The position numbers were made by a program, and so were the translations under genes. A stretch of 64,000 bases of DNA, from positions 14,146 through 78,145 of IMG/VR virus record IMGVR_UViG_2974642717_000001; one strand, 5' to 3'. Below, piece by piece: positions 37,446-64,000 of the stretch. How positions within the stretch are numbered: position 1 is the stretch's first letter; each line of letters starts with the position of its first letter. Source of the stretch: a virus. Lineage: Duplodnaviria; Heunggongvirae; Uroviricota; Caudoviricetes; Schitoviridae. Below the pieces are notes generated by a model. The model did not search any database. It saw nothing but the letters and a program-made list of their open reading frames with translations, and was not told the DNA's origin.

Positions 37446-37709
37446 TTATTCCTCCATTAAGTGCACCATATGAGCCATCTCATGTAACTCTGCCAATGAC
37501 TCGGTTTCATGTCCTGTGTCAATCCAGTCATGTACAAGGACTGCATTCCATCTTTCAGGATCTCTAGAGATGCGGATATGCTTCGGGTCAAGTAAACGGT
37601 GAGGACCTAAGTTAGCTCTGGTTTCAATACCCATAGCAAATTTAACGTAAGAGTCTCCTTTACGTGCCATATAAAGGTGAGGGTTACTAGCCTTTAACAG
37701 TTTCCACAT
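37446..37709 (-). CDS. hypothetical protein, 87 aa
   Basis: ORF in a tightly packed operon; product ends ...MEE. Confidence 0.45.
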   Translation of the reverse strand: MWKLLKASNPHLYMARKGDSYVKFAMGIETRANLGPHRLLDPKHIRISRDPERWNAVLVHDWIDTGHETESLAELHEMAHMVHLMEE

Positions 37710-37710
37710 A

Positions 37711-37971
37711 TTACATCTCCAGTATTTGCATTAGAGAGAGTTGGTCATAACACTCTTTAAGCGTCAGACCGTCATCTACTAATTCGTAATCTTCCATATT
37801 ACGAAGGATAGTAGCATCCGTGACAGGAATCCATACAGAGGTAGGATCTATCAGGGACTCAAGTTTGAAGGTCGTAGTGTCTGGGTAAGTCCACACAGCA
37901 CGATACCTCCTCTTTTCCATGTCCACGCATAGATAACGTGCCCTTCGATACTTTATCTTGTAAAGGTCCAT
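37711..37971 (-). CDS. hypothetical protein, 86 aa
   Basis: ORF; ends ...ILEM. Confidence 0.45.
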   Translation of the reverse strand: MDLYKIKYRRARYLCVDMEKRRYRAVWTYPDTTTFKLESLIDPTSVWIPVTDATILRNMEDYELVDDGLTLKECYDQLSLMQILEM

Positions 37972-38309
37972 TACTCCTCCAGTAACTTCTCAGTTAGGCG
38001 GATGTGGATATGCTCCATTGCTTCAGCATGTTTCTGCTTCAGCTCAAGAGCTTCTGCCGGTTCATCCTCTTGCGGATTCGTGACGTATTCATCGACAAAC
38101 TGGTGCAAAGGTTTAGGTAGCAGATGATACAACTGCTTCTTGGTAGAAGCAGCCGTTAGTACATCAGCGATGTACCAGTGCATTAAGTCAACCACGTTAG
38201 CAGTGTCTTTGGTAATGCTAGTAACTAGCACTTCCATTAGGGTCTGCTTCACGTGGAATTTGTGTTGAGGTGACAGGGTATCTGACACCAAAGGTCTTAC
38301 GCGTTCCAT
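37971..38309 (-). CDS. hypothetical protein, 112 aa
   Basis: ORF; ends ...KLLEE. Confidence 0.45.
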   Translation of the reverse strand: MERVRPLVSDTLSPQHKFHVKQTLMEVLVTSITKDTANVVDLMHWYIADVLTAASTKKQLYHLLPKPLHQFVDEYVTNPQEDEPAEALELKQKHAEAMEHIHIRLTEKLLEE

Positions 38310-38585: not shown

Positions 38586-38618
38586 TATGTGTTTCCTTAT
38601 GGTTTTTAAAAAGGTGGA

Positions 38619-39815
38619 CTAGTTGTAGCCCACATCAAATTCAATTACGGTACCGAACTTCGGATTGAAGCCGTGTCCCGGTAGTTTTACCCAAATTACC
38701 GGATAGTCCGGTTCTTCAGTGATTTCTCGACACTCCAAGTCAGAGAAAACGATTAGCACTAGAGGCTTGTTCTCTTCTTTGTTGTAGTGTTCGAAGATAG
38801 GTTCAAGAGCTGTACCACCACGGCCATGGAACGTCACATCACGCAAGTCTTCGCCTTTCGCAAGGTTGTAGATCTTGTGGATCTGAGTATCACAGTCGAT
38901 GATAGACATCTTCTCAGGGTTGTTGTTTTCCATGATGTCGTCCAACTCAGTAATGAATGCTGAGAATTGGTGGTTCGACACTGAACATGAAGTATCAACA
39001 GCAGCACCGATATGGCCTAGGCTCTCAGAGAACATAGACGGCAGGTACATGCCTTGTGATTGGTAACGACGGTTAGGCTTCTTCCAAGAGAAGTCTTCTT
39101 TATCGAACGCTGCCATGTAGTTCTGTAGAATCACATTCCACGGAAGTTTAGGGTTAGTTAGACGTTCAATAGATACCGCGATGTCGCCCGGGATTGCACC
39201 GGCTTCACCTTTGATCTTAGCAGCAGTAGAGGCTTTGATGATCGCGTCTTCAACTTTACGTTGTACGTCAGCTTCATCTACCTTGCCGCCCTGTCCGTCA
39301 CCGTCTTTGTCACCACCGGGGCCAGTGCCCGCAGGAGCGAAGTCAGGTTGGAAGTTAGGATCTTGCTTATCTTGGTTCTTCATCAAGTCATCAAAGATCT
39401 TGTCAGAAGACCATTCTTTCTGGTCTTTGTACTGGTGATCAGCTAGACCGCCTTGAATCATCTTGTAACCGGCATCGATTAGCATGATGTTAATGTAGTG
39501 GTCAGTCGCCTGATTCCATACATTGAAGTTGTCTTTCTTAGTCTTGTTCATTCGCAGCATGTGCTGGAATGCAACGTGCCAAGCTTCGTGAGCTAGCAAA
39601 AAGATGCGCTCATCAGGGCTTAGTGGTTCAAAGAAATCTGGGTTAACGTATAAGTTCAAACCATCCGTACATGCAGTAGGGCATTCGTCGGTCCAGTTGA
39701 ACTTTAGACTGAAAAGAATTGTTGAGATAAAGACAGAGCCTTTAACCTGTAACAAACCGATCTTAGCTCGGTCGTATGCTTTTTGTAGTTTTGCATCTAC
39801 TTTGATAGTTTTCAT
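38619..39815 (-). CDS. vWA-domain protein with N-terminal HExxH metallopeptidase-like domain (DUF2201-VWA-like)
   Basis: 'LLAHEAWHVAFQHM' (HExxH). Internal Gly-rich linker 'GTGPGGDKDGDGQGG'. C-terminal MIDAS-like 'AAVDTSCSVS'. Confidence 0.6.
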   Translation of the reverse strand: MKTIKVDAKLQKAYDRAKIGLLQVKGSVFISTILFSLKFNWTDECPTACTDGLNLYVNPDFFEPLSPDERIFLLAHEAWHVAFQHMLRMNKTKKDNFNVWNQATDHYINIMLIDAGYKMIQGGLADHQYKDQKEWSSDKIFDDLMKNQDKQDPNFQPDFAPAGTGPGGDKDGDGQGGKVDEADVQRKVEDAIIKASTAAKIKGEAGAIPGDIAVSIERLTNPKLPWNVILQNYMAAFDKEDFSWKKPNRRYQSQGMYLPSMFSESLGHIGAAVDTSCSVSNHQFSAFITELDDIMENNNPEKMSIIDCDTQIHKIYNLAKGEDLRDVTFHGRGGTALEPIFEHYNKEENKPLVLIVFSDLECREITEEPDYPVIWVKLPGHGFNPKFGTVIEFDVGYN

Positions 39816-39817
39816 TT

Positions 39818-40051
39818 TTACTCTTCCAAAATGTTTAGTAGTTGTTGTTCCTGTTGGAACGCTTCAAGGGATTCGGCATTCTGTAGGAATGTGTAATCCG
39901 AACGGGTGTAAAAGGCATCAGCCTCTGATAGTCTTTCATGGCTAGCATGGGTTAGGCCGAAGAATCGTATCGTTTTATCTTCGTATACGCACTTGTAACG
40001 AAAGTATGATGAACCAGTTTCGTAATCAGGACGTGAATGTATTTCAACCAT
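39818..40051 (-). CDS. hypothetical protein, 77 aa
   Basis: ORF; ends ...NILEE. Confidence 0.45.
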   Translation of the reverse strand: MVEIHSRPDYETGSSYFRYKCVYEDKTIRFFGLTHASHERLSEADAFYTRSDYTFLQNAESLEAFQQEQQLLNILEE

Positions 40052-40323
40052 TATGCCTCCAATAGAGCAATCATCTTTAGCTCATTGATTGTTTGTTCGA
40101 GGTTGCCATAGTCAGTGACATTTCCGTCAGCATCTTTGCTTACGTCAACACCAAACACACACTCGTCACATTCAGTCTTGCAGTCAATAGCCCCTGACTC
40201 CCTAACGGTAGCATTGGCACTGTGTTTACACACCTCACGTTCAGCTAGGGTATCAGCGTCCATGCTTAGTAGCATTGGTTTTAACGTCTCAAGCCGTTTA
40301 ATGGTTAGTTCGATATTGGTCAT
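40051..40323 (-). CDS. small Cys-rich protein (putative zinc ribbon), 90 aa
   Basis: 'CKHS...CKTECDECVFG' cysteine cluster; ends ...ALLEA. Confidence 0.45.
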   Translation of the reverse strand: MTNIELTIKRLETLKPMLLSMDADTLAEREVCKHSANATVRESGAIDCKTECDECVFGVDVSKDADGNVTDYGNLEQTINELKMIALLEA

Positions 40324-40631
40324 ACGTCCTCCAGTAAGGCATCAACCTTCTTGATATTCAGTATTCCCATGTGCTCGACTAGGTGCATTGGTAGGTCTTT
40401 ACGCGTACGTAACTCCTTCTCCAATTCAACTAGAGCTTCATCCAAGTAACCGGCAGGTGGATTGGTCATATCAGGAGCTTCATCACTGTTAGCCCAAATG
40501 GTATGAGGGTAACGAGCTTTCCACGCCATACGTAATGCATGGAATACGTGGGAAGTAGCCATCTGGGAGACACGTTTGCCATACCCATGAGCATTCATCC
40601 ATAAGAAGTTGCCATAGTTATCTTCCATCAT
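40320..40631 (-). CDS. hypothetical protein, 103 aa
   Basis: ORF; ends ...ALLEDV. Confidence 0.45.
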   Translation of the reverse strand: MMEDNYGNFLWMNAHGYGKRVSQMATSHVFHALRMAWKARYPHTIWANSDEAPDMTNPPAGYLDEALVELEKELRTRKDLPMHLVEHMGILNIKKVDALLEDV

Positions 40632-40912
40632 TCATCCTCCAGCAGATCTGTCAGCTGTACAACTTGGATAATCTTATCCATGTCACGGTTAACCGCATCT
40701 GCTGAGATATGTCCAAAGAAACATCCCTCACAGTCATTAGCTTTAGTTACTAGACGTGGGTCCCTTGGACTATCTCCTTTACCTTGGCGACATACAGGCA
40801 CACAGAAGTGCTGCTCAAAGTAGTCCTTAGAATCTTCCGTAGCTTCATGATTGTTTATCACATGCATGAATTCGCGCACAGACTCTAGGGCTTTTAATAT
40901 ATTTACACTCAT
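40628..40912 (-). CDS. small Cys-rich protein (putative zinc ribbon), 94 aa
   Basis: 'CVPVCRQG...CEGCFFGH'; ends ...DLLEDE. Confidence 0.45.
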   Translation of the reverse strand: MSVNILKALESVREFMHVINNHEATEDSKDYFEQHFCVPVCRQGKGDSPRDPRLVTKANDCEGCFFGHISADAVNRDMDKIIQVVQLTDLLEDE

Positions 40913-40987
40913 ATTTGTACCTTGTGTTAGAATTGCCTATACCTAATTATGAGGAATTAAATATGGCACATGTGTTGAAATTATGGA

Positions 40988-41470
40988 CTAAGCTTTAGTC
41001 CAACCTTTATGACTTTTACCCTTACCCTTAGCTATTGCAGCCATATGGGAGGGGTGTAGTCGGTTATCTCTGCAGAATTTACGTAGGTTGTATACACTTA
41101 CCACGTTCCCTTGAGGATCTTTAAATGTATACTGCTTAGCACGAGACTCCACTTTATTCTCAGTGGGGGTCACGAATTTACACGTATACGGGCTGTAATG
41201 TTTTGAGCCTGCTATATGTAGCACGTCCTTATCCAGTTGTGCCCCTTCAAAGTAATTACTCCCATCACACCATGCTGCAAACACTTGGTAATCATGCCAT
41301 GCGTCACATACAGTTACGCCCTTTGCCCCATACCATCGATAGGCACGAGTCTTGGGGTTATAACACCTACCTAACATTCCCACCCAAAGTCTATAACACT
41401 TAACCTGTTTCCCTTTAACGGTTGTAGGGTAGGGGCCGGGCCCGATGAATCCTATATTACATACTGACAC
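40988..41470 (-). CDS. AP2-like DNA-binding / homing-endonuclease-associated protein, paralog 1
   Basis: Shares 'CYRLWVGMLGRCYNP...YRWYGAKGVTVCDAWHDYQVFAAW...YNLRKFCRDNRL...SHKGW' with ORFs 50421..51158 and 51845..52327. Confidence 0.45.
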   Translation of the reverse strand: MSVCNIGFIGPGPYPTTVKGKQVKCYRLWVGMLGRCYNPKTRAYRWYGAKGVTVCDAWHDYQVFAAWCDGSNYFEGAQLDKDVLHIAGSKHYSPYTCKFVTPTENKVESRAKQYTFKDPQGNVVSVYNLRKFCRDNRLHPSHMAAIAKGKGKSHKGWTKA

Positions 41471-41554
41471 GACACCTCCTTACTGGTATACTGCGCGGTT
41501 TTAGGGTGGTACTATATCGCTATAATAATATATCCCAACTCTTAAGAGGAAATT

Positions 41555-42475
41555 ATGGCATACACTAAAATTACAGCCGACGGGCTGTACCCTTTAAATA
41601 ACGATATGAATACTAGCGAAACCACCATTTATGTTGGTGAGATACCAGCAGCAACTACTATCGCAATTGGTTTTAATGATCCAGATGGGAATTGGACTCC
41701 ATTCCCCAACTCGACATTAACTTCCCACACACCACTATCTATCAGCCATGGGCATGATGTAATGCTTATCGCATTAGCGGTAGATGTGTCTGGTGAAATT
41801 AACATCAGTACCAAGAAAGAAGGTCTTGGAAGCCTTGAAGGTTTACTTAATGTTATCGCGGATAACACCCAATCACCTATTAAAGTAGATGCTCCTGTAG
41901 ACACCCCTAGTGTACGTGTACAAGGTGGATGGCTTGAAGGGTATACCAAAGCTCAGATAGATGAGTTATTACTCTTAGGTAATGCTAGGTTTAGCGCATA
42001 TACCCTTGATGGTGTGACAGTGAGTAAAGACCCATTGAACCCTACATATCTAGACGGAGTTACCCTATTTCCATCATCTAGCGCAGACTTCCAACTCATC
42101 TATAACAATGCAGGAGAGTCGTGGATCAAGAATGTATCTTCCCGCACCGTTGAAATGGTAGGTGATTCTATGTGGCAGTTGGCTCAAGGTGCAGGTAGTA
42201 CAGGTGAGTTCGTCTTATGGTCGGAGAGATCTTCAGATGATGGGGAAACTTACTTTGAAAACGACCTGTCGTTACGTAAGAAATTAATCCCTAATAACTC
42301 TGCAGACTCTGTTAGCCTACCTACAGCTGTGGGTACTTGGGCACCTGATGAGTGTATTAGGTGGGCCATGTATAATAAACAGTCCGGTGACGTTATTCTT
42401 GCTACTCCAACGGATACAGTTAACGGTAACCCTATTTCAGGTATCGCTGTATACTGGAGACTAGAAGAGATCTAG
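41555..42475 (+). CDS. hypothetical protein, 306 aa; only +-strand gene inside the - strand block
   Basis: SD AAGAGGAAAT before the ATG; uses GGG/AGG/AGA/ATA codons more than core genes; flanked by an AP2-like selfish gene and a lipoprotein gene. Confidence 0.5.
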   Translation: MAYTKITADGLYPLNNDMNTSETTIYVGEIPAATTIAIGFNDPDGNWTPFPNSTLTSHTPLSISHGHDVMLIALAVDVSGEINISTKKEGLGSLEGLLNVIADNTQSPIKVDAPVDTPSVRVQGGWLEGYTKAQIDELLLLGNARFSAYTLDGVTVSKDPLNPTYLDGVTLFPSSSADFQLIYNNAGESWIKNVSSRTVEMVGDSMWQLAQGAGSTGEFVLWSERSSDDGETYFENDLSLRKKLIPNNSADSVSLPTAVGTWAPDECIRWAMYNKQSGDVILATPTDTVNGNPISGIAVYWRLEEI

Positions 42476-42954
42476 TCCCCACCTTTACAAGCTATAAAGT
42501 TACCTAGTAACTCGCCATCATGATCGTCGTGTTTATAGGTGTACCTTAAGTTGCAGTTCTCTTGGGCCATCATATACATACCCCAGATTTGGGATGAACG
42601 CATATCAGCTGGACTAAATAAGTCAGATGTCCATCCACTGCCCTGGTCCGGGTGGGTGTGCATGTAGGCCATAGCCTCACAGTTCTTCTGTGGGGTGTTT
42701 ACTTTTGGGTCCATCGTATTAGACAAACCTCCGACCTGCATATCCGAGAAGAAGTAACCTTCATCACATTGATATATCCAACCCATTGCTTCCTGTTCAG
42801 GGGTTAGATTGTTGATAGCATCCATATGGTAGTTATACCAAGCATAAGCAGCAGAATGCTGATCTTTATGTACAATCGGTATTGTTTTATACGTAGGTAG
42901 TGGCTCACACCCTACAGTGCAGGCTGCTGCCAACAAGGCAATAAACATTTTCAT
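42472..42954 (-). CDS. lipoprotein with HxHP...SPAD (JAB/RadC-like?) motif
   Basis: Signal peptide with lipobox 'LLAAAC'; 'AYMHTHPDQGSGWTSDLFSPADM' resembles JAB/RadC-type HxH...S..D metal motifs but with non-canonical spacing. Confidence 0.4.
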   Translation of the reverse strand: MKMFIALLAAACTVGCEPLPTYKTIPIVHKDQHSAAYAWYNYHMDAINNLTPEQEAMGWIYQCDEGYFFSDMQVGGLSNTMDPKVNTPQKNCEAMAYMHTHPDQGSGWTSDLFSPADMRSSQIWGMYMMAQENCNLRYTYKHDDHDGELLGNFIACKGGD

Positions 42955-43015
42955 AATTATCCTTAGCGGAAAGACTCGGTGGCGGGATTCTTCCCGCCTC
43001 CGCAGTCTTGCAGCG

Positions 43016-43480
43016 TTATTCCATTAGTTCCATCATTCGAATGAAAGCTAGAGCTTCACCAAGAGTTTCAAAGTCACCCTTATCAATCACACCTTGATGT
43101 TCTTCCATTGATTCAAGTTCCTTCTTAATAGGATTTGCCAGATATTCCGTGATAACCTCTAAGGTATCAACAGGATCTACCCAGAATCCATACTCGGTAT
43201 CTCCTTGAATACACCATTCAAGAGTACCTTGAGCCTCTGGGTCAAACCATACAGTGAAATTACTCATAGTATCCCCCTGCATAAATAGTAAGTGGTCAGC
43301 GCGGTACTCAGCCATAATCCCTAAGTAACACTGAGCATCACGTTCAAGGTCATACGCTTCTTGTTCCATTCCTTGCTTTGCTGCGCTAACAGAAAGCTCC
43401 ATACAGTCTTGCTGCATCTCTTGAAGTATCTCAAGTGTTCTATGTGCGATCATAATGAATTCCATATAAAAAAAGCCCAC
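43016..43480 (-). CDS. acidic hypothetical protein, 154 aa
   Basis: ORF; a T-rich hairpin-like region lies downstream at ~43470-43500. Confidence 0.45.
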   Translation of the reverse strand: MGFFYMEFIMIAHRTLEILQEMQQDCMELSVSAAKQGMEQEAYDLERDAQCYLGIMAEYRADHLLFMQGDTMSNFTVWFDPEAQGTLEWCIQGDTEYGFWVDPVDTLEVITEYLANPIKKELESMEEHQGVIDKGDFETLGEALAFIRMMELME

Positions 43481-43508
43481 TATAAAGTGGGCATTTGGTT
43501 AGTTAGGT

Positions 43509-43739
43509 TTAGCCTTTGTCAGCTTTATTGACGATGTCAATCGCTTTACTATTTAAACCTACGACCACTAATAGACCCATAATAGTCATCAGTGTTACAG
43601 ACAGCGGCCATAGTAATGCACCTAACAAAACGTTAGGCCATCGCATAGGCTTTTCCATTGCTGAGTTAAGAGCCCAGAAGAACAGCGCATATAGCGCAGC
43701 CACAGTTAAGTAAATACCCATTAGTCTTCGTCTCCACAC
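43509..43739 (-). CDS. small two-TM membrane protein, 76 aa
   Basis: Two long hydrophobic helices (LTVAALYALFFWAL, LLGALLWPLSVTLMTIMGLLVVVGL). Confidence 0.45.
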   Translation of the reverse strand: MWRRRLMGIYLTVAALYALFFWALNSAMEKPMRWPNVLLGALLWPLSVTLMTIMGLLVVVGLNSKAIDIVNKADKG

Positions 43740-43924
43740 ATTGATTTAATGTTTTGACGAATCTTCTTCGCCTTCTCAGCTTCCTTAGCGAGAGTGTCCA
43801 CCTTTTCCTGCATTGCTGCGATCTTAGCTGCACTTTTCTCGTTTTTCTTTTCAGCCGCTTTCGCGAATGAAGCAGCTTGGTTTTCCAACCAAGCCATAAG
43901 AGCTAGTAATACTTTAAAGTTCAT
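43721..43924 (-). CDS. small coiled-coil protein, 67 aa
   Basis: K/E/A-rich helix; overlaps neighbours by a few nt. Confidence 0.4.
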   Translation of the reverse strand: MNFKVLLALMAWLENQAASFAKAAEKKNEKSAAKIAAMQEKVDTLAKEAEKAKKIRQNIKSMCGDED

Positions 43925-43936
43925 ACTTTGTCCTTA

Positions 43937-44878
43937 TTATTTACCCGGTAGCCACAATGCATCAGGTGTTTCGCCAATACTCATGTTTGGAACAGAACCG
44001 TTCCATTGTTTAGCGCGAACCATCTCTACTTCAATACGCTTAAGTTCAACGATTGATGGAGTAAGAGATTTAGCTAGAGTCTTGTTACCTTCAGCTGTGT
44101 TCTTCATTGCTTGAAGTTCAGCTTTAGATACAACATCGATTTCGTGTGCACGAGCGTTAGCTTTAGACTCACGTTCGAATTGGTCAGCACGAGCTAGAGC
44201 TTTACGCTCTTTCTCAATACCTTCTGCTACAGCTTCTTTAGTCTTAGACTCAGTCTGCTTTAGCTTAAGGTTATGCTGTTCAATCATATCGTCTTCAGCA
44301 CGTTGAGCTGCACGGTCAATACGATCGGCAATCTTAGCGTGAGGAAGTACAGATTGAGGCAACACTTGTACGATTTGTACGTGTGTAGCGTACTTCTGTA
44401 GCTCATCAAACAGATACTCACCAAGGCCCTGACGAGACTCAGGCAACATCAGTGTACGAGTATCTTTGATCTGTGCAGCGTAGTAGTTAGCAAGAGAGTG
44501 AACACGTTGTGTCAGCTCTTGGTCTACATAGTTCTCCACTGTACCGTACTTAGCTGCAACGACAGGAGCCGAAGTAGTTTTAAGGCGGTAGTTGATCATG
44601 ATGTCACCACGTGCCGGGGTAGCGGCATCGGCTTCAGTAGTAAGTTTGATGTTCTCAAAGTACTTCTTCTGCTGAGTAATAGGCATGATCTGTAGATCTT
44701 CAATGATTGGGATAGTCACAATCGGACCAGTACCTACAGGTACGTCTTGGATCTCACCTAGTCGAGTAAGTACACCAATCTCTTTATCATTGATGATATT
44801 GATGTTGCTTACAGCTACGCCAACAGTAGCTAGACCGAGTGCAGCAATACCTGCGATGGCAATGTGTTTCATGTTCAT
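43937..44878 (-). CDS. SPFH/band-7 (stomatin/HflC-like) membrane protein
   Basis: N-terminal TM 'IAIAGIAALGLATVGVAV'; SPFH core 'EIGVLTRLGEIQDV...PIVTIPIIEDLQIMPI...GDIMINYRLK...APVVAAKYG'; C-terminal coiled coil. Confidence 0.6.
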   Translation of the reverse strand: MNMKHIAIAGIAALGLATVGVAVSNINIINDKEIGVLTRLGEIQDVPVGTGPIVTIPIIEDLQIMPITQQKKYFENIKLTTEADAATPARGDIMINYRLKTTSAPVVAAKYGTVENYVDQELTQRVHSLANYYAAQIKDTRTLMLPESRQGLGEYLFDELQKYATHVQIVQVLPQSVLPHAKIADRIDRAAQRAEDDMIEQHNLKLKQTESKTKEAVAEGIEKERKALARADQFERESKANARAHEIDVVSKAELQAMKNTAEGNKTLAKSLTPSIVELKRIEVEMVRAKQWNGSVPNMSIGETPDALWLPGK

Positions 44879-44902
44879 TCGTTTGGTTCCTGTGTTAAAT
44901 GA

Positions 44903-45718
44903 TTAAGCGACTAACTCACCTTCGATAGCTTCTTTCTCCATTCGTTGTTTGAATGGTAGAGCCATTGAAGGATCAACAGTGTTTAGGGCAGTTACTTTTG
45001 TGCTCACATCTTCAAGCACAACCTTCTGACGTTCGATGAATACATCTAGGCCAGACTCGTCAACAGTAGACGTTAGTTTCAAGCTGCTATCAATCTCTGC
45101 GTTCAGAGCGATAACTGCTACAGCTGTCTCAGCTGACTCAAGACGAGTTTGCTTAACGCTTAGCTCGTTCTCTTTGTTCATTACGTTCTTCTCAAGTACA
45201 TCGATTGTAGCTTCGAATGTACCAAGAGATTCCAACTGAGCATTCAGACGGATCTTCTTGTTAGAGATAGCACGTTGAAGGTTTGAGCCTTTAATTTCAA
45301 GCTCACCACGCGTGTTGTCGTCAAAGGCTTTCGCCCAGTCGCCTTCCACTACGTCAAGCTCAGCTTGTAGAGATTCAATCTCATTGCTTAGCTTACCTTG
45401 GTTGTTACGCATCACAGCAAGCTGTGCTTTTTTGTCGAACAACGTTTCACGGGCATTATCAATTGCGCGTGCTTCTTGGTCGAGACCATTAGAGAAGTCT
45501 TCAAGGCGTTGTTCCTCTTCAGTCTTCTTCGGTTTCATCATCTCTTCCAGACGAGCAGCTTCTTCTTCTTTACGGCGCTTCTCAGCTTCGTCTTTCAGTC
45601 GTTTCTTCTCGTCGGTTTTACGTTGCTCTTCTGCACGTGCAAGTGCTTCAGAGTCAGCGATCATTTGTTGTTCTAGACGGTATGCGTTTGGGGTGAAGAT
45701 TTTCTTTAAAAAGCTCAT
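44903..45718 (-). CDS. long coiled-coil protein (ER/K-rich single alpha-helix plus heptad coiled coil; PspA/flotillin-C-like?)
   Basis: 271 aa, almost entirely helical. 'KTDEKKRLKDEAEKRRKEEEAARLEE' segment. Directly upstream of the SPFH gene in the same operon. Confidence 0.35.
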   Translation of the reverse strand: MSFLKKIFTPNAYRLEQQMIADSEALARAEEQRKTDEKKRLKDEAEKRRKEEEAARLEEMMKPKKTEEEQRLEDFSNGLDQEARAIDNARETLFDKKAQLAVMRNNQGKLSNEIESLQAELDVVEGDWAKAFDDNTRGELEIKGSNLQRAISNKKIRLNAQLESLGTFEATIDVLEKNVMNKENELSVKQTRLESAETAVAVIALNAEIDSSLKLTSTVDESGLDVFIERQKVVLEDVSTKVTALNTVDPSMALPFKQRMEKEAIEGELVA

Positions 45719-45752
45719 GGTACTTTTCCTATTACTATTTGATTAAATGAGT

Positions 45753-45959
45753 TTATTCTACTGGGATGATTTTAAGAGCACGCTGACCTTTGTCAGTCTC
45801 TTCTAGACCTTCGATCGTAATCTCTTGTCCAGGTTTCAGAAAGCGAAAGCCTTCCATTGTGATAACTGACTGATGAAGTAATACATCTGACTCGATACCT
45901 TCGACTTTTGCGAATCCGTAACCACGGGTTCTGTTAAACCATTCTACGACAGCTTTCAT
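45753..45959 (-). CDS. cold-shock domain protein (CspA family)
   Basis: 'KAVVEWFNRTRGYGFAKVEG' matches the CSD RNP1 motif (KGxVKWFNxxKGFGFI). Confidence 0.75.
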   Translation of the reverse strand: MKAVVEWFNRTRGYGFAKVEGIESDVLLHQSVITMEGFRFLKPGQEITIEGLEETDKGQRALKIIPVE

Positions 45960-46004
45960 TTGTTGCTCCTAATTAATATATAAAAAACGGGGCACATATG
46001 TCCC

Positions 46005-46259
46005 CTAAGATACAACACTGTACATGTTAGCCATGCGCAGTGCTTTAGCTTTGCTCTTTGAACGATATAAAGCCATTGAAGGATCTATCAATAGAAATTC
46101 ACTAGTACGTTCATTGATTTGTGTACCAACCTGATACCCTTTAGGGCTTAACACAGCTTTGGTAGGTAGGTGCAACACTGTTACACCCATGTGAGGTGAC
46201 TCGACTACCAAGTACATAGGCTTAGTCGTCAGCGAATAGGTACTTCGCGTTCTGAACAA
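46005..46259 (-). CDS. hypothetical protein, 84 aa
   Basis: ORF; overlaps the start region of the ATPase gene. Confidence 0.35.
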   Translation of the reverse strand: MFRTRSTYSLTTKPMYLVVESPHMGVTVLHLPTKAVLSPKGYQVGTQINERTSEFLLIDPSMALYRSKSKAKALRMANMYSVVS

Positions 46260-47304
46260 TCCATTTACGCATAATCGGGTCTTTCTTTACAGCAGGTGTA
46301 CGCTTAAACATGTCACGGAAACAGATAATCTGGAACTCCATGCTCATGCGCTCTACGTACTTAACAACTTGCGCCAGATCTTTCGTATCTGTCTTCGATG
46401 CGATAGTACCGCAAGTGAAGTACAGAGCCGAAGGCTCATCTGGTACATCAAGTGTGTCAGGCTTAGCCAAGATTTGTTGGAAGGTTGGTAGTTTAGAACC
46501 AATCTCACAGTAACCTAGGAAAGCACGCGCAGGACCTTCGCCTACAATACCAGCCATAGCAGGCATATGTTCAGCAGTAAGATCATTAGCTTTACCATAA
46601 CGCGACATGAAGTCCCAAGTACGAGGACAAGGGAATGTCTTATCATGGTGGTTCGGATCAAACTCGTGGAGCTTATCCGGTGCGAATGCAATGTAAGAGG
46701 TCACTCGTGAATCAACACCGGCACCAGATGCCCATGATAACCAGTCTTCATGATCAATATCCACTTCCAAGTGCATAAGACGAGACTGCATTGCAGTACC
46801 GATTTTGTTTACGATCGCACCATCGTTCTTACGGTTACCCGCACAAACAATGTGTACTTTCGGATGAAGCTTGTGCTGACCTACTTCTTTATCAAGAGCT
46901 AGCTTATAAGCAGCAGCTTGAACAGACATCGGTGCAGACGGTAGCTCATCCAAGAACAGCAACCAGCCGTCCTTACCTTTTGGCACGTCACAGCCTTCAA
47001 TCGGGAACAGATCAAATGGAGTGAATGTAGCACTACCATTTACAATTGCAGGAAGACCACTTAGATCTGTTGGATCTGAGGTGGATAGACGGTGGTCAAT
47101 TACTTCAAGGTTTAGCTCTTGAGCTACTTGACGCACGATGTCTGACTTACCAATGCCCGGGGCACCAGCAACATACGGCACCAACTTAGCGTTAAGTGCA
47201 TTTACAACGAATTTACCTGCATTCTTTAGAGTTACGATCATTACTTTATTTCCTTTTACTTTAGAGAAGACCCTTACGGGCCTAGATTTGGGTGTCCAGC
47301 GCAT
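46222..47304 (-). CDS. MoxR-type AAA+ ATPase (AAA_5/CbbQ-like)
   Basis: Walker A 'GAPGIGKSDIV'; Walker B 'LLFLDELPSAP'; ~360 aa, single AAA module. Confidence 0.7.
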   Translation of the reverse strand: MRWTPKSRPVRVFSKVKGNKVMIVTLKNAGKFVVNALNAKLVPYVAGAPGIGKSDIVRQVAQELNLEVIDHRLSTSDPTDLSGLPAIVNGSATFTPFDLFPIEGCDVPKGKDGWLLFLDELPSAPMSVQAAAYKLALDKEVGQHKLHPKVHIVCAGNRKNDGAIVNKIGTAMQSRLMHLEVDIDHEDWLSWASGAGVDSRVTSYIAFAPDKLHEFDPNHHDKTFPCPRTWDFMSRYGKANDLTAEHMPAMAGIVGEGPARAFLGYCEIGSKLPTFQQILAKPDTLDVPDEPSALYFTCGTIASKTDTKDLAQVVKYVERMSMEFQIICFRDMFKRTPAVKKDPIMRKWIVQNAKYLFADD

Positions 47305-47397
47305 TATCCCCAGCTATGCTACACCGCCCCCTTGGATATAAGCTTTCGCTACCGGCAGCAGTATTGGGATTGAACCAATCAGTCTCTGGACATTTGT

Positions 47398-47778
47398 TTA
47401 GGTTTTGTCGCGTAGAGCAATAAGCTCTTCGATAGACAGGTTACTTAGAGACTCATCTTCTTTCTGAGCGATTAACTCATTAAGCTTGTTGCGCTCTTCT
47501 TTACGTTTACGCGCGTTAGCTGCTGTATCACGCTTATCTTGACGATATGCAATGACAGCCTTCACGATTTGCAGTTTGTTAGCAGCGAAGTTACCCGCCT
47601 TTGACGCCGGTTCAATGAAGCTAACAGTGTTAGCCTCGCTTTCCTCATGTAGACGGACAGCAACATCATTGACTTGAGTCAGTGGCATTTGGAACAGATC
47701 TTCCAGAGTCACATCACCTTTAGCAGAGGCAAAGCGAAAACGCTCAGCCAATGCTACCATTAGTAGTTTTTCCATCAT
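47398..47778 (-). CDS. hypothetical protein, 126 aa, K/R-rich helical
   Basis: ORF between the ATPase and the large gene. Confidence 0.45.
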   Translation of the reverse strand: MMEKLLMVALAERFRFASAKGDVTLEDLFQMPLTQVNDVAVRLHEESEANTVSFIEPASKAGNFAANKLQIVKAVIAYRQDKRDTAANARKRKEERNKLNELIAQKEDESLSNLSIEELIALRDKT

Positions 47779-47784
47779 GGTTCC

Positions 47785-52719: not shown

Positions 52720-52915
52720 AGCCTTTAGCCTTAGCGAGTGACTTAGAGCGGTAGATACACTGAATTAGTTCTAGTGCTAAAGCACCTTCGAACTGTTTCA
52801 GGTAGTGAGCAGGAGTTGCCTCCAGTTCCCAATCACTGTACTGATCTTTGATGTAGATCTCATTGCCTCTGAGGATGCAATACTCGTTGTCTTCATTCTT
52901 GTATACTTTATACAT
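52688..52915 (-). CDS. early-region small protein, 75 aa
   Basis: ORF; translationally coupled; ends ...EALLDV. Confidence 0.4.
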   Translation of the reverse strand: MYKVYKNEDNEYCILRGNEIYIKDQYSDWELEATPAHYLKQFEGALALELIQCIYRSKSLAKAKGFAKMEALLDV

Positions 52916-53216
52916 TGTCCATTAACTCCAACATTTGAATGTAGTCACGTACATCCTTCAGTGTCCTGAAATAGCCGTGATGTTCCACTACCTTATGTAG
53001 TGTGAGTATCTGATTCTCTGGTATGCCTGAAGCATAGTTCTCTGCGTAGTGACCAAAGTTGTTAGGTCCTACAGTGCCATGATTGATCAGTGGGTTTAAC
53101 CAGTCTGATCTAGGTACACGTGCTACCTTATTGCTTGAGGAGATAATCACCCAAGTGGTCTTGGTTTTAACGTATTGGGACAAGCCCTCTACTAACATGA
53201 ATCTTGCGTTATGCAT
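52908..53216 (-). CDS. early-region small protein (start revised to ATG at 53216)
   Basis: ATG at 53216 (MHNARFML...) lies within an ATGCATAA overlap with the upstream stop; ends ...LELMDNV. Confidence 0.4.
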   Translation of the reverse strand: MHNARFMLVEGLSQYVKTKTTWVIISSSNKVARVPRSDWLNPLINHGTVGPNNFGHYAENYASGIPENQILTLHKVVEHHGYFRTLKDVRDYIQMLELMDNV

Positions 53217-55183: not shown

Positions 55184-55194
55184 AATACTTTCCT

Positions 55195-61105: not shown

Positions 61106-61292
61106 GCACAGATTTCTTAGTTAGACCAAACTTACGTGATACAACAGTAAGTTGCTTTTGATTACCTGACTGAGCAGTATCACCACCAACACCATATACA
61201 CTTACAGTGATACCACCATTACGTAGTGCTTGTACACGTACTTCTTGGTTAGCTGAGTTAGTCATGCGGATTACTTTAGGAGAGATAGACAT
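61086..61292 (-). CDS. early-region small protein, 68 aa
   Basis: SD AAGGTAAT; hairpin promoter candidate 47 nt upstream. Confidence 0.45.
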   Translation of the reverse strand: MSISPKVIRMTNSANQEVRVQALRNGGITVSVYGVGGDTAQSGNQKQLTVVSRKFGLTKKSVLEALQD

Positions 61293-61338
61293 AGTTATTA
61301 CCTTTATAGTTTAAGTGAGCACGATTGCTCTATCATTT

Positions 61339-61353
61339 TAATCACGTAGTGAT
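61339..61353 (-). promoter_or_regulatory. vRNAP hairpin-promoter candidate (AATCAC-GTA-GTGATT)
   Basis: Preceded by CATTTTA as at 60751; 47 nt from the ATG at 61292. Confidence 0.55.
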
Positions 61354-61397
61354 TGCCTTTAAAAAACAAATGCACACCCTCTCGGATGTGCAATGTA

Positions 61398-61622
61398 TTA
61401 GTGCTGACGCTTGTTGAATGATGACAGTAGGTTGTTCTCATTCATCACGTCCCAATTGGTAGTACCAAGAGCTTCACTAATGTAGTCAAACTCTTGTTCA
61501 TCGTAGTTACAATCTAACTCACGACTCATACCACTCCCACTGAAATAGCTACTGAACAGGTCTTGCAGTTCAGCGTAGTATTCAGGAGTGATAGACTGAG
61601 GAGCAACAGATAGTAGTGCCAT
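61398..61622 (-). CDS. early-region small protein (start revised to ATG at 61622, 75 aa)
   Basis: SD AAGGTAA precedes the ATG at 61622 (MALLSVAPQ...); the track start at 61733 runs through the promoter hairpin. Confidence 0.4.
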   Translation of the reverse strand: MALLSVAPQSITPEYYAELQDLFSSYFSGSGMSRELDCNYDEQEFDYISEALGTTNWDVMNENNLLSSFNKRQH

Positions 61623-61658
61623 GTTATTTACCTTTAGGTTGATTGGATTGTTCTTCTT

Positions 61659-61673
61659 TAGCACGTAGTGCTC
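61659..61673 (-). promoter_or_regulatory. vRNAP hairpin-promoter candidate (TAGCAC-GTA-GTGCTC)
   Basis: 5-bp stem AGCAC/GTGCT with GTA loop; 37 nt from the ATG at 61622. Confidence 0.45.
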
Positions 61674-61814
61674 GCTCTTCCATCTGTTGACAAGCTTGAT
61701 CATTGACATGCTTGAAGTATGTAGCACCATCAAAGATGATGTGACACATGATACGGAACAGGTTGTAAGGTAGTTTAATCAGTAGCCAGATGTTCATCAG
61801 CATAGGAGTATTCT

Positions 61815-62162
61815 CTATTTAGTTAAGGTCTTGAGGGATTCTGGGGACATATTGTCTAGAAGGAACTGCATTTGTACCCACTGGTTTAGTTCTTCAATGC
61901 TATCGAAGTCACCAATGATATGTATATGCTCATCATCAGTGATATGACCACCATCAACAAACATACGTTGATATGCATCATTAGCTAACTCTTGCTTGCT
62001 ACTAACATGAACACATACGAAGTATGAGCTATTGATAGCAGTTTGAGCTTTTTCAACATTCTCAACTAAACTACCTACCCATTGGAAATGGTCGTATTCA
62101 GTAAGTAATGCTAGGCTTGGTTTACCAACATTAATGTATACAGCGTATAGACGTAGCTTCAT
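61815..62162 (-). CDS. early-region protein, 115 aa
   Basis: ORF downstream of an AT-rich inverted-repeat intergenic region. Confidence 0.45.
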   Translation of the reverse strand: MKLRLYAVYINVGKPSLALLTEYDHFQWVGSLVENVEKAQTAINSSYFVCVHVSSKQELANDAYQRMFVDGGHITDDEHIHIIGDFDSIEELNQWVQMQFLLDNMSPESLKTLTK

Positions 62163-62202
62163 AGTTTATAACCTTAGGGATATTTTGGAGGTTAAACATT
62201 AG

Positions 62203-62234
62203 TATAGATATAGCCATTATTAGCTATATCTATA
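62203..62234. repeat. perfect 12-bp inverted repeat TATAGATATAGC-8 nt-GCTATATCTATA in an AT-rich intergenic region, plus two GTATTAGTATA direct repeats (62235-62245, 62267-62277)
   Basis: Read directly from the sequence; the 127-nt non-coding gap 62163-62289. Confidence 0.7.
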
Positions 62235-62289
62235 GTATTAGTATATAGGTGCAATAGGTAAGAGAAGTATTAGTATACTTCTATAGAAG

Positions 62290-62601
62290 TTACTTGTTCT
62301 TGAAGTAGATGTCTTCATCAACTACACATACTCTATCTATTAGTGCAATGTCTTGTCTCTCAATGCCTTGTGATACAAGGTGTGCAATACATTTAGCATC
62401 TTCTCTATAGTTCTCTAGTTCAGTCATGAATAGCTCATAAGTGTATAGACCTGATGTAATAGCACCTATTACACATAGGATAGTTACTAGAGCAGTGATG
62501 TATTCAATACGAGTAAGGTTTAGTTTAGGCATAGGATATTCCAATGTAGTGTAAGGGTTAAGGATGCAACACAGTTGCAATGAATAGCAGTGATATACCA
62601 C
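62290..62601 (-). CDS. early membrane protein (TM helix ITALVTILCVIGAITSGLY); start GTG 62601 or ATG 62532
   Basis: ORF; hydrophobic helix; start ambiguous. Confidence 0.4.
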   Translation of the reverse strand: MVYHCYSLQLCCILNPYTTLEYPMPKLNLTRIEYITALVTILCVIGAITSGLYTYELFMTELENYREDAKCIAHLVSQGIERQDIALIDRVCVVDEDIYFKNK

Positions 62602-62615
62602 TAATCTACTACCTT

Positions 62616-62630
62616 ACTCACGTAGTGAGT
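62616..62630 (-). promoter_or_regulatory. vRNAP hairpin-promoter candidate (ACTCAC-GTA-GTGAGT)
   Basis: 6-bp stem with GTA loop, between a terminator/(TTGTG)4 repeat and the next gene. Confidence 0.45.
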
Positions 62631-62656
62631 GCTCTTTCCTACCCTATCTGTCTTCT

Positions 62657-62676
62657 TGTGTTGTGTTGTGTTGTGT
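62657..62676. repeat. (TTGTG)x4 tandem pentanucleotide repeat
   Basis: Four perfect tandem copies between the terminator at ~62681-62715 and the promoter hairpin at 62616. Confidence 0.8.
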
Positions 62677-62680
62677 AGAA

Positions 62681-62715
62681 AGAAAAAAGGGTGAAGCAGC
62701 CCTAAGGCTACTTCT
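62681..62715 (-). terminator. intrinsic terminator after gene 62708..62896
   Basis: - strand RNA: GAAGUAGCC-UAG-GGCUGCUUC (9 bp, one G-U) followed by ACCC + UUUUUUCUUU. Confidence 0.55.
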
Positions 62716-62896
62716 CTTCTTTGTCTAGTTCTAGCTCTGATGCGTCTAGGTCTAAGTCTTCTAACGTATCGTTGAGTAGCTTAGTTGAATGTGCTTGACC
62801 AACCTTAGCTAGGTTGTCCATGCCTACCATGGTACGCTCTGCTACTGTGCCGATCATGAATAGTGCACGGAATAGTTGACCGATTGATGCGAACAT
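62708..62896 (-). CDS. early-region small protein, 62 aa
   Basis: First gene downstream of the 62937 hairpin promoter candidate (41 nt spacing). Confidence 0.45.
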   Translation of the reverse strand: MFASIGQLFRALFMIGTVAERTMVGMDNLAKVGQAHSTKLLNDTLEDLDLDASELELDKEEK

Positions 62897-62936
62897 AATG
62901 TTATACCTTTAGTTATTATGACGTAATTGTCATGTT

Positions 62937-62951
62937 AATCCCGTAGGGATT
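62937..62951 (-). promoter_or_regulatory. vRNAP hairpin-promoter candidate, variant stem (AATCCC-GTA-GGGATT)
   Basis: Same C-GTA-G loop and TTAAT left flank but a different stem sequence; 41 nt upstream of the ATG at 62896. Confidence 0.45.
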
Positions 62952-62966
62952 GCTCTTGATCTTATA

Positions 62967-62976
62967 GGGGGGGGGG
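62967..62976. repeat. G10 homopolymer tract
   Basis: TATAGGGGGGGGGGTCTT read directly; intergenic, between a terminator and the first early promoter. Confidence 0.9.
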
Positions 62977-63054
62977 TCTTCTCTTTTAAAAGGATCAAGG
63001 AGTATAGTACTACTCTCGTACCTAATTATTAAAAATTTCAAAATACCTGCGGGT

Positions 63055-63080
63055 ACAAAAAAGCCTCCATTTTCGGAGGC
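63055..63080 (-). terminator. intrinsic terminator after gene 63101..63439
   Basis: - strand: GCCTCC-gaaaat-GGAGGC followed by TTTTTTGT. Confidence 0.7.
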
Positions 63081-63100
63081 TAGTTAGTAAGTAATATTTA

Positions 63101-63439
63101 CTATTCTTCTGTTGGTTCTTCTTTAACCTCTTCCTTTTTCTTTCGTGGTTTACGTTTCTTCTTAACTTCTGTCTCGATAGCTTCTTCTCGCTTATCAATG
63201 ACACCATCTTTGTTTAGGTCTTTGGCTTCATCTACTGATTCAAATAGAGCATGGAATGCCTTTGGATCGTAGTAGTTGATCTTACCAGAGTCAGTCTTTA
63301 CGACTACTTGGCCTAGTGCAGGACGTAGGTGTACTTGTCGTTTACGTAGTGCTGATAGGAACCATACAGGTGCTGCTTCGTTACCTCCGTATACAAATGC
63401 TTCTACTTCTGTTGGTTTAGCACGGTATGTTTTACTCAT
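63101..63439 (-). CDS. hypothetical protein with Lys/Glu-rich C-terminal tail, 112 aa
   Basis: ORF immediately downstream of the ClpP-like gene (ATG/TAA adjacent). Confidence 0.45.
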   Translation of the reverse strand: MSKTYRAKPTEVEAFVYGGNEAAPVWFLSALRKRQVHLRPALGQVVVKTDSGKINYYDPKAFHALFESVDEAKDLNKDGVIDKREEAIETEVKKKRKPRKKKEEVKEEPTEE

Positions 63440-64000
63440 TTATTTCTCCTCGTAGTAGGTTTTAGATACAAGAGCTTTCGTCTCGTTAGCTGAGAACCAT
63501 AGATCTGTACCGTCCATTAGGCGTTCCACATCTCGTTCATCTAGGTACTTTGAGTAGATGTCAGCGTAGACTTCGTTCATGTATTTCTTTTGATACTCCA
63601 TCTGTTTCTCTGTATCGGAGCCTTTACCTACTATACCACCTGATTCACGGTGAAGCATTAGCGAGCCAAACTTACCTACTTGTTTGTTCTTACAAGCTAG
63701 GAAGATTAGGGAGCCTGCTGAGAAACCATCACCTACTAGGCGTGCTGTTACGTTACCTTTACATTGTTCGATTGCATCGATTAGGTGTACTGCTGTGTCT
63801 AAACGACCACCTGGGGTATTGATTGTTACTAGTACCTTGTCGCCTTTACGTGCTTGACGGAGGATTTCAAATTCACGACTGTAGTCACTAGGCTGTTCAA
63901 TAGCCTCTAGTAAGTCGATGTACCCTACACGGTAATCACCATGGTCGGTGAATAGTGGAATGTCTTTAGCTGGTGCTTTTGGAATTAGTAGATCGATCAT
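63440..64000 (-). CDS. ClpP-like serine protease (S14 family); start at or beyond window edge
   Basis: 'TINTPGGRLDTAVHLIDAIEQCKGNVTARLVGDGFSAGSLIFLAC' aligns with ClpP 'INSPGG...G.AASMG..LL.AG' around the catalytic Ser. Confidence 0.6.
   Translation of the reverse strand: MIDLLIPKAPAKDIPLFTDHGDYRVGYIDLLEAIEQPSDYSREFEILRQARKGDKVLVTINTPGGRLDTAVHLIDAIEQCKGNVTARLVGDGFSAGSLIFLACKNKQVGKFGSLMLHRESGGIVGKGSDTEKQMEYQKKYMNEVYADIYSKYLDERDVERLMDGTDLWFSANETKALVSKTYYEEK

Follow-up and report, generated by a model that had tools for sequence, protein, structure and literature searches.

Why do two genes that are normally neighbours in N4-like phages lie some 6.4 kb apart in a phage of marine Vibrio, and what might the SPFH/Band-7 membrane protein encoded between them do during infection? 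The locus that raises these questions is part of a stretch of 64,000 nucleotides (IMG/VR record IMGVR_UViG_2974642717_000001; hereafter the window, to which all positions refer unless another locus is named), whose segment 38600-47400 is 100% identical to bases 52745-61545 of Vibrio phage vB_VspP_pVa5 (KX889068.2), a member of the Schitoviridae (Pontosvirinae, Galateavirus) that we call pVa5 in the following. An initial annotation had described the intervening genes as an accessory island carrying a self-contained membrane module; all open reading frames (ORFs) that it listed were found, on the strands it had given. The underlying observation is sound: the accessory character of the island, the SPFH protein and its co-operonic setting all hold. 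Its novelty was overstated, since SPFH genes are found in N4-like and many other phages and that of pVa5 is already annotated, and the PspA and NfeD partner ideas were not borne out. The GenBank record of pVa5 in fact already names SPFH, CspD-like, MoxR-like, HNH and metallopeptidase-domain genes, and the pVa5 genome paper makes no mention of these island genes. Newly reported here are a CC271-SPFH gene pair found across two phage families, a conserved terminator behind the operon, and an allele swap at the SPFH gene.

Both boundaries of the island are formed by core genes on the minus strand. The upstream one (46222..47241; a GenBank coding sequence of 339 aa) encodes a MoxR-like AAA+ ATPase that matches PHROG 1297 ('ATPase') with E=5e-126 and is 40% identical to gp24 of N4; its matches to the Pfam families AAA_5 and bpMoxR are weak and lie under the Pfam cut-offs, so that 'MoxR' is a family-level label only. 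The downstream one (38619..39815), called the vWA gene here, encodes a DUF2201_N metallopeptidase-like and VWA-like protein (Pfam DUF2201_N, E=4e-42; DUF2201, E=2.4e-24) that is 35.5% identical to N4 gp25 and 90-91% identical to its counterparts in relatives of pVa5. In N4, gp24 and gp25 are 168 bp apart, and the gap shrinks to ~10 bp in the Vibrio phages D491 and 1.238.A. Among the 80 best relatives of the ATPase in IMG/VR, inspected with 10-kb flanks, 77 loci contain both genes, and at every one of these the vWA gene lies downstream of the ATPase gene on the same strand. The gap between the two, taken between stop-to-stop ORFs, has a median of 482 nt; it is shorter than 50 nt at 25 loci, shorter than 1 kb at 61, between 1 and 4 kb at 14, and exceeds 4 kb in just two, which are the Pontosvirinae genomes of this collection. 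The view that the two genes are normally neighbours, and are separated here by ~6.4 kb, is therefore correct; in pVa5 they also belong to separate transcription units. Homologues of the island genes were confined to these two loci among the 80, and this restriction, together with the spread of gap lengths, shows that the junction is variable throughout the family while its 6.4-kb filling is clade-specific. The island is thus an accessory block in the naturally variable ATPase-vWA junction of marine-Vibrio N4-like phages; the synteny comparison that had been called for found its gene set neither contiguous nor conserved across all N4-like phages, as a family-wide core would be.

The block consists of three parts. 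An upstream unit comprises the ATPase gene, a 61-aa ORF, and the genes for a cold-shock protein (Csp), a 271-aa protein (CC271), the SPFH protein, a 67-aa protein (cc67) and a 70-aa protein (TM70), and has the conserved terminator at its end. In the middle part, the genes for a 145-aa protein and a lipoprotein are convergent with a single plus-strand gene, and the downstream unit is made up of an HNH insertion (in pVa5 only), four coupled mini-genes and the vWA gene. This order, including the plus-strand gene, is kept gene for gene in Nahantvirus, Dorisvirus and a metagenomic relative (L014/L015). The island is accordingly clade-core, shared by three genera and one metagenomic relative; the term accessory is justified by the restriction of its homologues to Pontosvirinae, whereas the notion of a strain-specific insert is not. 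Dorisvirus has its own variants: the CC271 slot (L003 8699-9295) is occupied by a 198-aa protein with nucleotide-modification-associated domain 5 (Nmad5, E=1.4e-12) and a 53-aa ORF, an HNH-like gene sits in the slot between the ATPase and Csp genes, and a GIY-YIG gene is found elsewhere within the island. In VBP32, which belongs to the Fuhrmanvirinae, the ATPase and vWA genes are also separated, by a differently composed island with an HNH gene, Csp, a 433-aa SPFH protein, a cc67 homologue, the plus-strand gene and an s103 homologue. The VBP32 record has the genes VPMG_00001 and VPMG_00115 (L011 11144-11311, L012 12528-12695) at its opposite ends, and their 55-aa products are identical; this record was therefore opened inside the island, with a terminal duplication, and the island is contiguous across the record ends.

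The SPFH/Band-7 gene (43937..44878, minus strand) encodes a protein of 313 residues in which an N-terminal transmembrane (TM) anchor is followed by the alpha/beta domain typical of SPFH proteins and then by two helices, the first of them ~90 residues long. Its SPFH fold, which the initial annotation had proposed, is confirmed by profile matches and by a structure model. Pfam assigns residues 28-194 to Band_7 (PF01145) with 36.1 bits against a gathering threshold of 23.6 (E=8.7e-9), and the protein matches PHROG 200, a family labelled 'lipoprotein', with E=3e-41. A word-indexed search returned four homologues and a profile search 13; a single-chain AlphaFold2 model built from 11 sequences has a core with pLDDT values of 78-89 that contains strands at residues 70-79, 89-99 and 167-178, three helices, the long helix 181-271 and the second helix. 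When this model was compared with the PDB by Foldseek, the top 50 matches all belonged to the SPFH family, the full-length ones over ~250 aligned columns: erlin1/2 (1.2e-8) scored best, followed by HflK/C in complex with FtsH (~1e-7), and prohibitin, stomatin, flotillin, QmcA and the major vault protein were among the others. A profile of eight phage SPFH homologues, compared with solved chains, matched HflK (1.5e-9) and HflC (2.3e-7) best, with QmcA at 3.2e-4; the HflC alignment starts at residue 6 and hence includes the TM anchor. By profile and modelled fold, the closest characterised relatives of the pVa5 SPFH protein are HflK and HflC.

The protein has one N-terminal hydrophobic segment (~residues 3-29, hydropathy 2.2) flanked by positive charges on its N-side and negative charges on its C-side, and a homologue from T5-like phages carries a strongly basic tail ahead of its TM segment. 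From these flanking charges and the alignment with HflC from residue 6 onwards, we infer an HflC-like topology, N-in/C-out, in which the bulk of the protein would reside in the periplasm. With only four close relatives found, the pVa5 protein represents a rare sub-type; its C-terminus carries the conserved motif W-x-G-x-(V/L)-P that is common to the phage family.

The reading that we favour, tentatively and at somewhat less than an even chance, is that the SPFH protein builds an HflC-like cage at the inner membrane of the host. It would insert N-in/C-out in the manner of HflC and oligomerise via its C-terminal coiled coil (~110 residues) into a periplasm-facing structure, acting either as a homo-oligomer or by mixing into the HflK/C cages of the host. 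Such a cage might fence off inner-membrane clients during infection, or alter access to them; candidate clients are an FtsH-type protease and the respiratory complexes. Given that its nearest relatives are HflK and HflC, a role in FtsH-type proteolysis would be the simplest guess. The co-expressed proteins CC271 (a predicted cytoplasmic hairpin), cc67 and TM70 would then be, at most, loosely coupled accessories and not obligate subunits. An earlier role had also been envisioned, namely stabilisation of the inner membrane while the virion RNA polymerase and the genome are ejected. Judged by the infection programme of N4, this is unlikely, because the SPFH gene must first be transcribed from the very genome that is entering.

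The genetic setting of the SPFH gene is that of a compact operon. The gaps between Csp, CC271, SPFH, cc67 and TM70 measure 34, 24, 12 and -1 nt, and a sequence scan found an intrinsic-terminator hairpin (GCCCAC-TTTATA-GTGGGC followed by a T-run; 43475..43492, minus strand) that ends the ATPase-to-TM70 unit, of which the ATPase gene is probably the first. The hairpin behind TM70 is kept in four phages; in L002, L003 and L014 its stem is changed and lengthened. Gap lengths and terminator bear out the proposed operon, in which a coiled-coil gene and two tiny genes accompany the SPFH gene. The first of these, cc67 (43721..43924, minus strand; PHROG 27189, E=5.7e-34), encodes 67 residues with a hydrophobic N-terminus (MNFKVLLALMAWL) and a helix rich in K, E and A; its homologues in L002, L003, L014 and VBP32 fall into two allelic types. 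TM70 (43509..43721, minus strand) is a GenBank coding sequence of 70 codons, to which the start of the 2-TM protein was corrected; TM70 shares 1 nt of its start with the stop codon of cc67. Its product is almost entirely hydrophobic, with two such segments, and its length is kept at 213 nt in annotated relatives. An NfeD-like fold had been suggested for this mini-protein; TM70 contains neither an NfeD (PF01957) nor an OB domain by Pfam, and no island protein matches NfeD at E<=0.1.

How tightly, then, are these genes linked in evolution? CC271 and SPFH genes are adjacent and in the same order not only in the Schitoviridae but also in Vp_R1, a member of the Grimontviridae, and in the ENA contig L013, where no other gene of the window accompanies them. 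It is fairly unlikely, in our estimate, that there is no functional module at all and that the block merely gathers independent morons in a recombination-permissive junction, the CC271-SPFH adjacency being a hitch-hiking relic of a single horizontal transfer. Such a collection would agree with the length of the ATPase-vWA junction, which varies from 0 to 4 kb across 75 loci, with homing-endonuclease genes that come and go at several slots, and with the occurrence of SPFH genes in the company of neither CC271, cc67 nor TM70 in T5-like phages, Aeromonas T4-like phages, K412 and N4; CC271 relatives apart from SPFH genes exist as well. It accords poorly with the order Csp-CC271-SPFH-cc67-TM70, which persists together with the terminator across genera in which the island proteins are 26-87% identical, or with the CC271-SPFH pair itself, which persists in Vp_R1 and L013 at 54-59% identity despite a 78-aa gene inserted between its two members in L013.

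The SPFH slot has a history of its own. The pVa5 SPFH protein is only 26-27% identical to the syntenic SPFH proteins of L014, Nahantvirus and Dorisvirus, and 59% identical to those of Vp_R1 and L013, while its flanking genes track the backbone (CC271, 81-87% in relatives; cc67, 85% to L014). Divergence at SPFH between flanks that match the backbone indicates a clean replacement of a single allele at this slot.

Several observations weigh against the cage that we favour, or against a tightly built module around it. Oligomerisation, topology and clients are all predictions, and the AlphaFold2 model has low confidence over the first 66 residues. The HflC-like label does not extend to the HflC/HflK equivalog models of NCBIfam, which the pVa5 protein does not match and for which N4 gp20 scores 20.7 bits against a cut-off of 134.4. 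HflK/C is a hetero-oligomer of two paralogues, and an SPFH profile finds a single SPFH ORF in the 64-kb window. The literature searched for a function of phage SPFH proteins, or of N4 gp19/gp20, yielded no functional study and no experiment, in line with the remark in the initial annotation that no function has been described for such a module. The alleles at SPFH, cc67 and CC271 vary independently of one another: in L014 the cc67 gene is of the pVa5 type (85%) and the SPFH gene of the Nahant type (27%), and the two cc67 types are uncorrelated with the SPFH type. Dorisvirus has no CC271, and no SPFH gene lies near the distant CC271 relatives. Independent assortment and the Dorisvirus case argue against a tightly co-adapted complex, and the predicted placement of the SPFH domain in the periplasm and of CC271 in the cytoplasm argues against a simple complex of these two proteins. 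Of the self-contained module of SPFH, coiled-coil and tiny membrane proteins that had been envisaged, the operon is supported, and a tight complex appears unlikely.

CC271 (44903..45718, minus strand) is an all-helical protein of 271 aa that lacks a TM segment and a signal peptide and is predicted to be cytoplasmic. Its family is very small: nine matches were found in 5.8 billion proteins, and an exhaustive profile search of 1.84 billion representatives yielded nine clusters, all of phage type. The family alignment comprises a short hydrophobic N-terminal motif (MGFFADLFG, MGLISALFG, MSFLKKIF), a variable, charged or proline-rich linker of ~50 residues, a strongly conserved core, and a C-terminal MALPFKQRM. 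In the AlphaFold2 model (mean pLDDT 78), residues 67-215 form an antiparallel hairpin of two helices (67-130 and 134-215) with pLDDT >90, followed by shorter helices. We take these hairpin helices, 64 and 82 residues long, to resemble alpha1 and alpha2/3 of PspA, and the N-terminal motifs presumably resemble the N-termini of ESCRT-III/PspA proteins. Pfam analysis of the genes next to the distant relatives (L017, L021) was uninformative. One of these relatives lies a few genes downstream of a TerB (tellurite-resistance-like) gene (L017 3686-4648), and a TerB gene is likewise found near the ATPase of Vibrio phage D491 (L009 7185-7613); with TerB, a further accessory gene of the envelope-stress type occurs in this broad region of N4-like genomes.

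An assignment of CC271 to PspA/ESCRT-III, as had been suggested, found no support in Pfam, PDB-profile or hhalign comparisons. None of the nine family members matches PspA_IM30 or Snf7 (Pfam, E<=10), alignment of the family profile with E. coli PspA by hhalign gave a probability of 0.8%, and a profile search of the PDB returned neither PspA nor Vipp1. Foldseek does place Vipp1/PspA structures at the top of the PDB matches to the model (6zvr, E=3.5e-3; 8qbw; 8qbs) over ~220 aligned columns; no Foldseek match reaches E<=1e-3, and hairpins of SMC, tektin, colicin and TolC-related proteins score similarly. On sequence and model, CC271 is therefore best described as a generic long helical hairpin: membership of the PspA family is unsupported by sequence, and the fold comparison does not discriminate.

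These data bear directly on a membrane-repair function modelled on the B. subtilis PspA-YdjG/H-YdjI system, in which CC271 would be a highly diverged ESCRT-III/PspA-like protein that the SPFH protein and the small membrane proteins recruit to damaged inner membrane, so that the proton-motive force is kept up during infection or against pore-forming abortive-infection (Abi) effectors. We consider this quite improbable. Beyond the Foldseek ranking, it can draw on the PspA-band-7 gene neighbourhoods of bacteria (PMC11237479), on the functional link between PspA and SPFH proteins (PMC8581546) and on the adjacency of CC271 and SPFH genes in two phage families; against it stand the sequence comparisons just given, the variable linker behind the N-terminal motif, which is unlike PspA, the modest hydrophobic moments of that motif (0.23-0.66), and the predicted periplasmic location of the SPFH domain, which would leave CC271 out of its reach, whereas YdjI is cytosolic. 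A bolder version would make CC271 the founding member of a phage-specific, extremely diverged ESCRT-III/PspA branch that, together with an HflC-like SPFH cage and the two mini membrane proteins, forms a portable inner-membrane repair or remodelling kit keeping the cell energised, for instance against membrane-depolarising Abi effectors. It would draw on the hydrophobic N-terminal motif, the alpha1-alpha2/3-like hairpin and the conserved C-terminal peptide motif, and we regard it as a long shot.

Beyond the Pontosvirinae, SPFH genes are widespread in phages, and the presence of one in an N4-like phage is not unusual; phage SPFH genes are numerous and already annotated, and gp20 of N4 is itself a Band_7 protein. 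The pVa5 type (PHROG 200) occurs in 338 phage records, including T5-like, Aeromonas T4-like and Vibrio phages, and the N4 gp20 type in 702, including the 'MbpS/prohibitin' genes of Staphylococcus Kayvirus. SPFH ORFs of T4-like phages were tabulated as early as 2006 (PMC1524935), and as late as 2026 a paper described why a phage should carry an SPFH gene as unclear (PMC13239085). In N4, gp20 (L008 8057-9092; Band_7, E=1.2e-23; lipobox-like N-terminus LTSC) lies upstream of the ATPase gene and is preceded and overlapped by gp19, a 68-aa gene for a 2-TM protein; beside them lies gp18, annotated as a superinfection-exclusion gene with similarity to P22 gp17. The pairing of gp19 with gp20 may parallel the arrangement of SPFH and TM70 in pVa5.

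This neighbourhood suggests a further role, which we think unlikely, in superinfection exclusion or envelope remodelling: the SPFH protein, with cc67, TM70 and the lipoprotein, might alter the inner membrane or periplasm such that DNA delivery by later phages is blocked or the timing of lysis is shifted. The island does encode several envelope-targeted products (the TM-anchored SPFH protein, the 2-TM protein and the lipoprotein), gp18 of N4 has an SPFH lipoprotein (gp20) and a 2-TM protein (gp19) as its neighbours, and two SPFH types that are ~26% identical and swapped at a fixed slot, along with two cc67 types, form the pattern expected under phage-phage or phage-host conflict. Yet the swapping of alleles is equally typical of neutral mosaicism in accessory regions, the annotation of gp18 was made by similarity alone, and the literature searched offers no experimental link between SPFH proteins and exclusion.

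The middle part of the island begins with the gene for a 145-aa acidic cytoplasmic protein (43016..43453, minus strand), which is conserved in relatives over its C-terminal ~85 residues only. Next to it lies the gene for a predicted lipoprotein of 160 aa with an LLAAAC lipobox (MKMFIALLAAAC...; 42472..42954, minus strand; PHROG 33532), for which the Shine-Dalgarno spacing favours the ATG at 42954. The HxHP...SPAD motif that had been pointed out is indeed present as HTHP-x13-SPAD (HxH...SxxD), which we take to resemble the JAMM/MPN metalloprotease signature; the match of the lipoprotein to DUF4329 (E=4.5e-6, 27.1 bits) lies under the cut-off of 28.6. The convergent gene for a 306-aa protein (41555..42475, plus strand) has the orientation of the structural and vRNAP (virion RNA polymerase) block (14-20281) and is, as had been noted in substance, the sole plus-strand ORF with 130 aa or more in the ~43 kb from 20.7 to 64 kb. 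L014 and Nahantvirus encode versions of its product with 92% and 63% identity; the VBP32 version shows 72% identity over the first 115 residues, and the C-terminus has diverged. A conserved N-terminus joined to a variable C-terminus recalls receptor-binding or fibre proteins. It has no PHROG function, and PDB sequence searches with this protein and the lipoprotein found nothing. A sigma-70-like promoter (CTGACA-17-TATACT with TG before the -10 element; 41464..41492, plus strand) matches the consensus 63 nt upstream of the plus-strand gene. It should be noted that the region contains 10 sigma-70 matches and shuffled sequence 17.5, so that these promoter calls are not evidence, and that N4-type middle promoters are outside the coverage of the scan.

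At the head of the downstream unit is an HNH-type homing-endonuclease-like gene (40988..41470, minus strand), which the initial annotation had called an AP2-like selfish gene; it matches HNH-endonuclease PHROGs (PHROG 2081, E=2.3e-59). This gene is a pVa5-specific insertion that L002, L003 and L014 do not have at this slot. HNH-like genes occupy differing slots, lying between the plus-strand gene and the mini-gene chain in pVa5 and directly after the ATPase gene in Dorisvirus and VBP32 (L003 9685-10194; L011 2815-3291 and 8987-9469), which fits independent selfish insertions into the island. The four small genes that follow (39818..40912, minus strand; 94, 103, 90 and 77 aa) are translationally coupled through ATGA or TAATG junctions. 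All four occur in L002 and L003, and three, the 94-aa gene being the exception, were found in L014. Overlapping or abutting junctions and Cys4 clusters in two of the products, both features noted before, were recovered: of the 94- and 90-aa proteins (40628-40912 and 40051-40323, minus strand), one has its cysteines at positions 32/48/52/55 and the other at 37/41/61/64. These two proteins align weakly with each other (E=7e-4), share the motif C-[DE]-[EG]-C-[VF]-F-G and have no Pfam or PHROG assignment; these sequence features point to a probable pair of diverged paralogues, each with a site that resembles a zinc ribbon. The coupled genes (39815-40640; junctions 40631/40628, 40323/40320, 40051 and 39818/39815) end in ...L-L-E-[DEA], encoded by CTGGAGG or TTGGAGG sequences that double as the Shine-Dalgarno element of the next gene, the ATG of which overlaps or abuts the stop codon; several upstream small proteins (37446-38309) similarly end in ...LEE, ...LEM or ...MEE. 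Their C-termini thus appear to be constrained by the ribosome-binding site. A second terminator-like hairpin was found by sequence scan at the end of the vWA gene (38614..38633, minus strand).

Four start codons, that of TM70 among them, had to be revised on the basis of GenBank coordinates, homologue lengths and upstream sequence. Alignments of the ATPase with its homologues begin at about residue 17-32 of the longer ORF, and its start is probably at 47241. An 84-aa ORF with a TTG start more likely corresponds to the GenBank coding sequence of 61 aa (46005..46190, minus strand), so that island and ATPase gene do not overlap; this ORF has no homologue in any compared locus and sits in a variable slot that in relatives holds a 158-aa gene or an HNH-like gene. 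A supposed 154-aa ORF has its GTG start inside the stem of the terminator hairpin, the true start being the ATG at 43453. The gene next to the 61-aa ORF encodes a CspA-type cold-shock domain protein of 68 aa (45753..45959, minus strand; Pfam CSD, E=1.3e-14) that is 84-87% identical in relatives and 68% in VBP32. PHROG 1314, along with RefSeq and pharokka-style annotation, calls the DUF2201_N/VWA-like protein an 'HNH endonuclease' (window 38619-39815; L008 11164-12306; L009 13105-14229; L010 13058-14188), which looks like a propagated misannotation because Pfam detects no HNH domain in it. Likewise, the two-piece 'tRNA-TERM' feature at 61223..63832 of KX889068.2 (window ~47080-49690), which spans 2.6 kb of coding genes, is an annotation artefact, since a search of the window from 38 to 52 kb with ARAGORN gave neither a tRNA nor a tmRNA. 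Searches for defence or anti-defence functions gave PADLOC matches at noise level and nothing usable from NCBIfam.

Roughly a thousand sequenced phage records, including those of N4 and T5-like viruses, have matches to SPFH/Band-7 genes, and the literature searched gives a tested function for none of them. Against this background, the pVa5 locus offers a compact and tractable case with one SPFH gene, a defined operon, natural allele swaps (two types ~26% identical in near-isogenic backbones) and variants lacking CC271. Should the protein indeed form an HflC-like cage at the inner membrane of the host, it would reveal how a lytic phage re-partitions that membrane or takes over quality control of the FtsH type; otherwise, the locus amounts to a well-delimited accessory island at a variable junction of Schitoviridae genomes and nothing more.

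Among known systems, the phage SPFH 'lipoprotein' families (PHROG 200 and the N4 gp20 type) are the most similar, with the same N-terminal anchor, SPFH domain, coiled coil and W-x-G-x-(V/L)-P motif. The pVa5 gene differs from gp20 in its position, between the ATPase and vWA genes and not upstream of the ATPase, and in lacking the lipobox cysteine that gp20 has. The FtsH-modulating HflK/HflC cage of E. coli provides the closest characterised architecture: as in HflC, a short tail precedes the single TM segment, and the SPFH domain is joined to a long coiled coil, in a predicted N-in/C-out arrangement. Identity in fold alignments is 13-19%, and a K/C pair contrasts with a single phage gene.

Two further bacterial arrangements share the operon context. 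In B. subtilis pspA-ydjGHI, an SPFH gene likewise shares its operon with genes for a protein of the helical-hairpin type and for small membrane proteins; PspA is brought to the membrane there by YdjI, the SPFH protein (PMC8581546), and operons that join PspA and band-7 genes recur in bacteria (PMC11237479). CC271, in contrast, is not detectably a PspA protein, the pVa5 SPFH protein is TM-anchored and predicted to be periplasmic whereas YdjI is cytosolic, and TM70 and cc67 show neither similarity to YdjG/YdjH nor relevant Pfam matches. In the SPFH-NfeD operons (QmcA-YbbJ, YqiK-YqiJ), an SPFH gene adjoins a gene for a small multi-TM protein, and QmcA is found among both the fold and the profile matches; TM70, however, has no NfeD or OB domain, and QmcA is a weaker match than HflK/C. 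Finally, the genes flanking the island are orthologues of the N4 pair gp24-gp25, which the clade of pVa5 retains in split form, its two members held ~6.4 kb apart by the block described here.

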